DNA of 2,077 nt from assembly GCF_003334405.1 (NCBI RefSeq), contig NZ_QOWM01000039.1; one strand, written 5' to 3'. The notes under the pieces were generated by a model, which was not told where the DNA came from, did no database searches, and saw only the letters and a list, made by a program, of their open reading frames with translations. Position 1 is the stretch's first letter, and each line of letters begins with the position of its first letter. Below, in pieces: positions 1,219 to 1,247 of this stretch. The stretch comes from Escherichia coli (lineage in GTDB: Bacteria; Pseudomonadota; Gammaproteobacteria; Enterobacterales; Enterobacteriaceae). Both the position numbers and the translations under genes were made by a program.

Positions 1219-1247
1219 TTGCAAATACGACTTAAGGGTCGTATTAT
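1219..1247 (+). promoter_or_regulatory. Putative sigma70 promoter (TTGCAA -17 bp- TATTAT) with an inverted repeat AATACGAC-N6-GTCGTATT (1224-1245) occupying the spacer; candidate operator
   Basis: -35-like ttgcaa at 1219-1224, 17-bp spacer, -10-like tattat at 1242-1247, about 60 bp upstream of the ATG at 1310. The perfect 8-bp inverted repeat overlaps both hexamers, the typical placement for a repressor operator. Confidence 0.4.

Follow-up and report, generated by a model that had tools for sequence, protein, structure and literature searches.

A 22-bp dyad in a predicted promoter spacer as candidate operator of an operon-encoded XRE-type HTH protein on IncX, IncI2 and IncU plasmids

Introduction

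Autoregulated repressors that control establishment genes form a kind of system that is already known. On the Bacillus plasmid p576, several putative establishment-gene promoters carry the operator of one autoregulated plasmid repressor, Reg576, and transient de-repression after transfer was proposed as an alternative to single-strand promoters (PMC6294495). The same repressor-escape logic has also been inferred for the repressors of RP4 (PMC7314908). MqsA binds a short palindrome in the promoter of its own mqsRA operon, a two-gene toxin-antitoxin cassette. The Aca proteins reportedly act as autorepressors, and the logic of repressor escape applies to them too.

The gene mcr-1 is carried mainly by IncX4 and IncI2 plasmids, and NDM carbapenemases are encoded on IncX3 plasmids. 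The literature that we searched gave no account of how IncX4, IncI2 or IncX3 plasmids switch on the genes that enter first, and no expression data. On IncF and IncI1 plasmids, the Frpo/ssi elements (classes 1-3) are repeated noncoding modules that precede leading-region operons and are transcribed toward oriT, and a long hairpin rebuilds their -35 and -10 hexamers (PMC9849209, PMC12672017, PMC11541004). A recent survey reports that Frpo promoters hardly ever occur on plasmids that encode H-NS and that these plasmids are apparently without a leading-region programme (PMC12826799).

We analysed a 2,077-nucleotide stretch of Escherichia coli DNA (contig NZ_QOWM01000039.1), hereafter the window. 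An initial annotation, made from the letters of the window, had proposed a sigma70 promoter ahead of a J-domain gene, with an inverted repeat in its spacer as a candidate operator. Here we compare this site across plasmid families and relate its versions to the alleles of a small DNA-binding protein encoded by the same operon.

Results

The promoter core is conserved while its surroundings drift

The window is 99.7% identical to positions 25553-27629 of NZ_CP116128.1, a conjugative plasmid of 30.9 kb (MOBP/MPF_T) with an IncX-like backbone that carries a pir-type replication gene, hns, hha, topB and taxB/taxC. On the + strand, a -35 hexamer TTGCAA (1219-1224) is followed by a 17-nt spacer (1225-1241) and a -10 hexamer TATTAT (1242-1247), and in a promoter scan this arrangement matched the consensus at 9 of 12 positions. 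The window holds three promoter-like matches versus 3.4 +/- 1.9 in shuffled sequences, so the match alone is not above chance.

Conservation was more informative. We compared 43 distinct 75-nt contexts of the site, drawn from IncX1, IncX3, IncX4, IncI2, IncU and other plasmids and from metagenomes. The TTG of the -35 hexamer was invariant, and the -10 hexamer read TATTAT or TATAAT in every context. The distance between the hexamers was 17 bp, with 16 bp in two lineages (types E and F of the dyad described below). Positions 4 and 5 of the -35 hexamer varied freely, taking at least seven values (CA, CG, AT, CC, CT, AC and TC), which is the pattern expected of a -35 element, and one metagenome copy carried the consensus -35 TTGACA. 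The 20 nt upstream of the -35 hexamer were AT-rich in all copies without conservation of sequence, and the flanks drifted. Because the hexamers and their spacing are fixed while the surroundings drift, positions 1219-1247 very likely form the core of a sigma-70 promoter, and the promoter that the initial annotation had called plausible thereby gains in standing.

From promoter geometry alone, transcription is predicted to start at the A at position 1254 on the + strand, 7 nt past the -10 hexamer. An A-tract at 1201-1207 on the same strand, at about -53 to -47 from the predicted start, weakly suggests a possible UP-element-like sequence. An extended -10 motif, TGGTATTTT (approximately 1130-1138, inside the GC-rich block described below), was rejected as a real promoter since its key bases vary elsewhere (TTTTTT, AATTTT, AACTTT).

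A 22-bp dyad in the spacer occurs in six versions

The candidate operator is a 22-bp dyad at 1224-1245. Its arms, AATACGAC (1224-1231) and GTCGTATT (1238-1245), are perfectly complementary over 8 bp and enclose the centre TTAAGG (1232-1237), and the repeat takes in the final base of the -35 hexamer as well as bases 1-4 of the -10 hexamer. This agrees with the perfect 8-bp inverted repeat, reaching across the spacer into both hexamers, that had been read from the window before. The window contains three perfect 8-bp inverted repeats with loops of 3-8 nt, versus a mean of 0.16 and a maximum of 2 in 300 shuffles. The pattern of the 22-mer occurs twice in the 30.9 kb parent plasmid versus 0.09 occurrences expected, and the second copy, for which a search of the replicon had been suggested, heads the next operon of the same plasmid. 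This plasmid thus has two dyad units, each heading an operon; other plasmids have 2-4. No match to the LexA box (CTGT-N8-ACAG) occurs anywhere in the window, as the initial annotation had stated.

Six versions of the dyad, A to F, were recognised, each associated with one allele of the HTH protein described below. All are 22 bp long and share an identical centre relative to the -10 hexamer. Type A, AATACGAC-N6-GTCGTATT, is found in this window and on 33-kb IncX4 plasmids. Type B, AATACATCT-N4-AGATGTATT, belongs to most IncI2 plasmids, and type C, AATACCGCA-N4-TGCGGTATT, to an IncU plasmid on which one copy is a perfect 22-bp palindrome. Some IncI2 plasmids and some IncX4-typed plasmids carry type D, AATAGGTCA-N4-TGACCTATT. 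Type E, (T)ACCATCA-N2-TGATGGT(A), adjoins TATAAT on IncX3 plasmids, and type F, TATACCTGCA-AA-TGCAGGTATA, is that of IncX1 plasmids. Strain DETEC-P666 offers an anecdote of co-residence, with type A on its IncX-like plasmid NZ_CP116128.1 and type B on its IncI2 plasmid NZ_CP116127.1.

Across the versions, every change in one arm is mirrored on the other, and the inner bases are self-complementary. Copies of a single version, numerous and variable in their flanks, scarcely differ in the sequence of the arms. The centre of type A takes the forms TTAAGG, CCTGAG, TTAAAA, TTGAAA and TTAAAG around fixed arms, and the centre of type D likewise varies between fixed arms. Judged from these sequences, recurrence and conservation exclude a chance origin of the dyad. 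The placement had been described as typical of repressor operators, and the retention of the dyad through compensatory changes in six versions speaks for that description.

The promoter and dyad form the 3' part of a repeated module

The earlier reading of the site held; what it had missed is that the site belongs to a repeated module, consisting of a GC-rich block, the promoter/operator and a structured leader, that is common to several plasmid families. The promoter and dyad are the 3' part of this noncoding module of approximately 415 nt (895-1309 in the window), which opens with the GC-rich block (895-1176); an AT-rich stretch leads from there to the promoter and its dyad, and a 56-nt leader closes it. 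The module recurs at 28520-28934 of NZ_CP116128.1, before the next gene group, and IncI2 plasmids have 3-5 copies ahead of their own gene cassettes. Scanning metagenomes with the conserved leader gave 14 further loci, which were used in the comparison; the same scan of a genome collection gave a single match, on a contig of an Acinetobacter assembly.

The GC-rich block, given here on the + strand, is strongly structured, with fold z-scores of -5.0 for the - strand and -4.0 for the + strand. It measures approximately 283 nt (second copy, 28521-28803 of NZ_CP116128.1) and was found at 2587 places in 1122 plasmid records, with no match among phages and nothing relevant in Rfam at E-values up to 1. 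Only one pair in the block shows two Watson-Crick types, so that covariation offers no test of its structure; the block may act as a signal for priming or as a single-strand element of a new kind. ORFs have been annotated across it, as 'molecular chaperone DnaJ' at 28488-28808 and as 'hypothetical protein' in IncI2 plasmids, and these are probably spurious. By HMM search, the block lies upstream of most promoter/operator units and is missed at several (both sites of locus L024, site 1 of locus L021, and locus L029). That the unit is found without the block argues that the promoter/operator is a functional unit in its own right.

The leader is predicted to fold into two stem-loops on the + strand. 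The first, GAAAGGGG AATGG CCCCTCTC, spans 1257-1277, and a stem occurs at this position in the other folded versions too, despite differing sequence; a transcription start at 1254 would place this conserved stem-loop at the 5' end of the mRNA. The second, GCCC AGCA GGGC (1284-1295), stands directly before the Shine-Dalgarno sequence and has compensatory variants in IncI2 plasmids (GTCC-AAAC-GGAC), the IncU plasmid (GCCCG-ACA-CGGGC) and type D (GCCGC-TCA-GCGGC). These leader stem-loops may lend stability to the mRNA or leave the ribosome site accessible. A Shine-Dalgarno sequence AGGAG (1296-1300), part of a strong ribosome-binding site, and an ATG (1310-1312) follow on the same strand, and ACAGGAG or GCAGGAG, an A/T-rich spacer and the ATG are kept in all copies of the module.

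The site heads an operon in a probable leading region

Immediately to the left of the window is the replication gene, on the opposite strand. To the right of the site, the + strand carries first the J-domain gene with three small genes, then another group of small genes and hicAB. Past hicAB come a taxA/ddp1 homologue, which extends across the origin of the record, and taxC. In IncX1 and IncX3 relatives the genes follow in the same order up to ddp1 and the relaxase. The operons face taxA/taxC and a probable oriT, an orientation shared with the F plasmid, in which the leading genes face oriT and the tra genes. Given this gene order in the IncX relatives and the orientation as in F, the region is probably the leading region, in which this site would head the first operon and the transferred strand would serve as template.

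Two further features were noted in the window. The stretch TTCCGCTTCCTCGCTCACTAACTCGCTCCGCTCGGTCGTTCGACTGCGGCGAGCGG (258-315 of the window) sits between the pir-type replication gene and the probable leading region, and a sequence common to many small mobilizable plasmids matches it at approximately 96% identity; we take it to resemble the hairpin beside the pBR322/ColE1 origin that has been described as a PriA primosome assembly site. The direct repeats CCATAAATCTGTCCC and CCATAAATTTGTCCC, at 1-15 and 166-180, lie 165 bp apart in the AT-rich region beside the replication gene and may be iteron-like repeats of the origin.

The operon encodes the J-domain protein, a 180-aa protein, an 83-aa protein and a 75-aa HTH protein. 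The J-domain gene comes first (1310-1825, + strand, 171 aa; supported by the ORF list, the annotation and a match to the DnaJ J domain) and is the conserved first cargo gene in the leading regions of IncX, IncI2 and IncU plasmids. Its product has a J domain only at residues ~7-57, and for the C-terminal 110 residues the only matches are to phage families without an assigned function (phrog_15863, 5.5e-38). For the 180-aa protein we found no family and no solved structure that matched. The 83-aa gene (28021-28272 of NZ_CP116128.1, approximately 390 bp past the end of the window) encodes a basic protein and, in alignments of all dyad versions, always overlaps the start of the HTH gene. The model of this protein (pLDDT 89) has a four-strand sheet and a helix; it fits no toxin fold, and the sequence has no match in Pfam, NCBIfam, PHROGs or the PDB. 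The 83-aa protein could be a partner of the regulator, as co-repressor, anti-repressor or toxin, and may alter its action.

An HTH protein encoded by the operon co-varies with the dyad

The repressor that recognises the site had been expected to lie outside the window, and a likely one is encoded by the fourth and last gene of the J-domain operon. This gene, at 28259-28486 of NZ_CP116128.1 (equivalent to 2707-2934 in window numbering), starts 630 bp past the end of the window and approximately 1.45 kb downstream of the predicted transcription start. Its 75-aa product (WP_000801440.1) is an XRE-type HTH protein with likeness to MqsA and to Aca proteins, and its recognition helix co-varies with the dyad. 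In Pfam it matches the C-terminal part of MqsA_antitoxin (2e-5), aligning only to positions 70-126 of the 131 in that model, and Xre-like-HTH (1e-4). Sequence matches in the PDB are MqsA (3fmy, 7e-5; also 3gn5) and Aca3 (0.013), and the PHROG match is a phage family termed 'transcriptional repressor'. The AlphaFold model (pLDDT 88) was most similar in a Foldseek search to Aca1 in complex with palindromic DNA (7c0g; probability 1.0, TM 0.71-0.76, with weak E-values of 8e-3 at best), followed by MqsA, HipB and controller proteins of R-M systems. Aca1, MqsA, HipB and the R-M controllers are all small dimeric regulators that bind promoter palindromes.

Homologues of the HTH protein occur in 2936 plasmid records. 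The HTH allele matched the dyad version in 14 of 14 loci that held both, and in further cases too with no exception, an association that covers six specificity classes only and much of which physical linkage alone could yield, the HTH gene and the dyads lying within 1-3 kb. The six dyad versions correspond to six variants of the recognition helix. Alleles A and A', with an identity of only 76%, have the recognition helix R33-T34-W35-Q36-K37 in common and go with one and the same dyad. Other alleles read S-T-Q-K, S-N-Q-R, R-T-R-R, S-A-Q-A or N-S-Q-M at positions 33/34/36/37, and their dyads differ. Positions 33 and 37 are among the most variable between alleles and align with N97 and R101 of MqsA, residues that reportedly contact bases.

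Plasmid type is no guide to the dyad version in this comparison, as dyads A and D both occur among IncX4-typed plasmids, and B and D both among IncI2 plasmids. Among the loci compared, the dyad version follows the recognition-helix residues of the HTH protein and not the plasmid backbone, which argues against a backbone-encoded or host regulator. Collectively, we estimate a probability of roughly 0.68 that the 22-bp dyad is the operator of the operon's own HTH protein, set in a sigma-70 promoter that would be expressed transiently after transfer. A distant homologue on the IncL/M plasmid NZ_CP068924.1 (3471-3950) has 159 aa and two tandem copies of the domain; such a protein might read a non-palindromic or pseudo-palindromic site.

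Alternative explanations for the dyad

The dyad might instead be kept because it folds into a hairpin, be it within the single strand during transfer or within RNA from an upstream start, and the match to the HTH allele would then reflect linkage only. The role of such a hairpin could lie on single-stranded DNA, in priming or in early transcription, or else in the stability or processing of read-through RNA. The co-varying arms and the variable centre, which would be the 'loop', also fit a hairpin under structural selection, and the two nearby leader hairpins co-vary as well; the near-invariance of the arms within a version, amid variable flanks, nevertheless argues for sequence-specific over purely structural selection. 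Both strands are predicted to form a local hairpin (DNA, -5.9 and -6.8 kcal/mol with z-scores of -4.7 and -4.1; RNA, -10 kcal/mol), but the stem is short and AT-rich and would be expected not to persist on SSB-coated DNA. Moreover, an RNA that starts near 1254 would not contain the dyad at all. The site is in a probable leading region, and single-strand promoters are known there on other plasmids (PMC9849209, PMC12672017). Unlike those published promoters, the hexamers here have no distal partner that would render them double-stranded: in folds of 870-1312 on both strands, the spacer palindrome pairs locally. Five single-arm variants were available; on the + strand a G-T wobble results in four of them but not in the fifth. 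This 4-to-1 split, in which most variants keep a pair on the + strand, hints faintly at a folded strand; the comparison of G-T with A-C by strand is not decisive. The fixed length of 22 bp and the fixed centre relative to the -10 hexamer, by contrast, fit the geometry of a protein on a promoter, and we regard selection for the fold as an unlikely origin of the dyad.

It is less likely still that the promoter and operator are real and bound by something else, either another plasmid factor (an ActX/PixR-like sigma-like HTH protein, H-NS/Hha or HicB) or a host regulator. The plasmid does encode several further DNA-binding proteins; the dyad version, however, is independent of the backbone that carries those factors (A or D on IncX4, B or D on IncI2), and a single host regulator would not be able to read six different inner half-sites. 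Linkage could account for the association with the XRE-type gene, but the dyad tracks the recognition helix of this protein even where the rest of it has diverged by 24%.

An intrinsic terminator or insulator against upstream transcripts from the origin region or the preceding operon, made of the hairpin and the T-rich run ATTATTGTTT, is very improbable: a terminator scan did return 1224-1245 (9 pairs, 4-nt loop, tail ATTGTTTCAT) and the RNA hairpin reaches approximately -10 kcal/mol, but only 3 of the pairs are G-C, the T-rich run is the -10 hexamer itself plus the discriminator, neither the fixed spacing of 16-17 bp nor an invariant TTG placed 5 nt ahead of the stem would be explained, and we rejected this reading on type D, which reads TATTATAAACAC... 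in place of the T-rich tail and fully keeps the dyad.

Discussion

A predicted switch for genes that enter first

With the dyad as operator of the operon's own HTH protein, a simple circuit can be proposed. A dimer of the HTH protein would lie across the spacer and the upstream half of the -10 hexamer and would keep RNA polymerase off the promoter. A second unit of promoter, operator and leader heads the next operon, and the two operons would form one small negative-feedback regulon. In an established plasmid both promoters would be shut. On conjugative entry into a repressor-free cell, once the transferred strand has been made double-stranded, they would fire until new repressor accumulates, and the resulting short burst of establishment genes would amount to zygotic induction via repressor escape. 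Repression appears far more likely than MerR-like activation because the 17-bp spacer is optimal and the protein is of XRE type. What the comparison shows is the sequence features, their conservation, the co-variation of dyad and HTH allele and the predicted fold of the HTH protein; we infer DNA binding, the direction of regulation as repression, the transcription start and the timing after transfer.

A more tentative extension concerns the six or more matched versions, which might define 'establishment-immunity' groups comparable to the immunity types of phages. A resident repressor would then silence the burst that follows entry of a plasmid with the same operator version, and selection would favour new specificities. 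The two DETEC-P666 plasmids with differing versions fit this idea, as one anecdote. The same doubtful extension would have the switch, often together with the GC-rich block, provide early leading-region expression to Frpo-less, H-NS-encoding plasmids such as the IncX carriers of mcr-1 and NDM.

The analysis suggests that H-NS-encoding plasmids would have a leading-region programme after all, with a repressor/operator switch in place of a single-strand promoter. In the literature that we searched, we did not find this family of regulator and operator or its six matched specificities. If the reading is true, it would provide a testable regulator of plasmid establishment for IncX, IncI2 and IncU resistance plasmids that enter a new cell, at least six short repressor/operator pairs that are orthogonal and naturally occurring, and a possible basis for cross-talk between co-resident plasmids.

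Comparison with known systems

Like this site in its probable leading region, the Frpo/ssi elements stand before operons with the same gene orientation, and a strongly structured GC-rich block lies just upstream of the site here. In contrast to the long hairpin that rebuilds the hexamers of these elements, only the spacer folds locally at this site. A blastn comparison of the window with 9 of the 18 Frpo/ssi sequences of Supplementary file 4 of PMC11541004 (4 of 5 known, 5 of 13 candidates) gave nothing significant. A search by nhmmer with a profile of the module gave nothing below E = 0.7 in the F leading region, including the sequences upstream of klcA and the methylase gene (class 2/3 locations). 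A long-range pairing of 881-898 with 1289-1306 is present in this copy and was set aside as it is not conserved in the others. We therefore rejected a single-strand promoter of the Frpo/ssi type, for lack of similarity to the Frpo/ssi sequences and F leading region compared and of a hairpin that rebuilds the hexamers; the site looks like an ordinary double-strand promoter with an operator.

MqsA offers the best sequence match to the HTH protein, through its C-terminal HTH domain (PF15731; 3fmy, 3gn5). It differs in its N-terminal domain, which binds zinc and the toxin and is absent from the protein described here (75 aa versus 131), and the 83-aa partner encoded upstream has no similarity to MqsR or any known toxin. 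The operators here head cargo operons, unlike that of the two-gene mqsRA cassette. A toxin-antitoxin module of the MqsRA type was rejected on two grounds, the HTH protein being without the zinc-binding domain and the 83-aa partner without a match to any toxin fold.

Similarity to Aca1 and Aca2 extends to the arrangement of the locus: an operon of an invader's establishment genes ends in the gene of a small dimeric HTH protein of XRE type, and a palindromic operator overlies its strong promoter. Aca1 with palindromic DNA (7c0g) is also the best match to the predicted fold, and Aca3 a weak match in sequence. However, the similarity in sequence is marginal, the Aca proteins belong to acr loci of phages and prophages whereas this operon lies in a probable plasmid leading region, and no anti-CRISPR gene was recognised in the J-domain operon. 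Unlike the Aca operators, the operator proposed here sits in the spacer at a fixed register and comes in at least six specificity versions.

Reg576 differs in its parts. This ribbon-helix-helix protein occupies dual heptamer repeats with two dimers, whereas the candidate repressor here is an XRE-type HTH protein with a single 22-bp dyad in the spacer; the two have no sequence relationship, and the hosts here are Gram-negative. The logic that we propose for the J-domain operon is nevertheless that of Reg576, for which it is reported as experimentally shown in p576 (PMC6294495).
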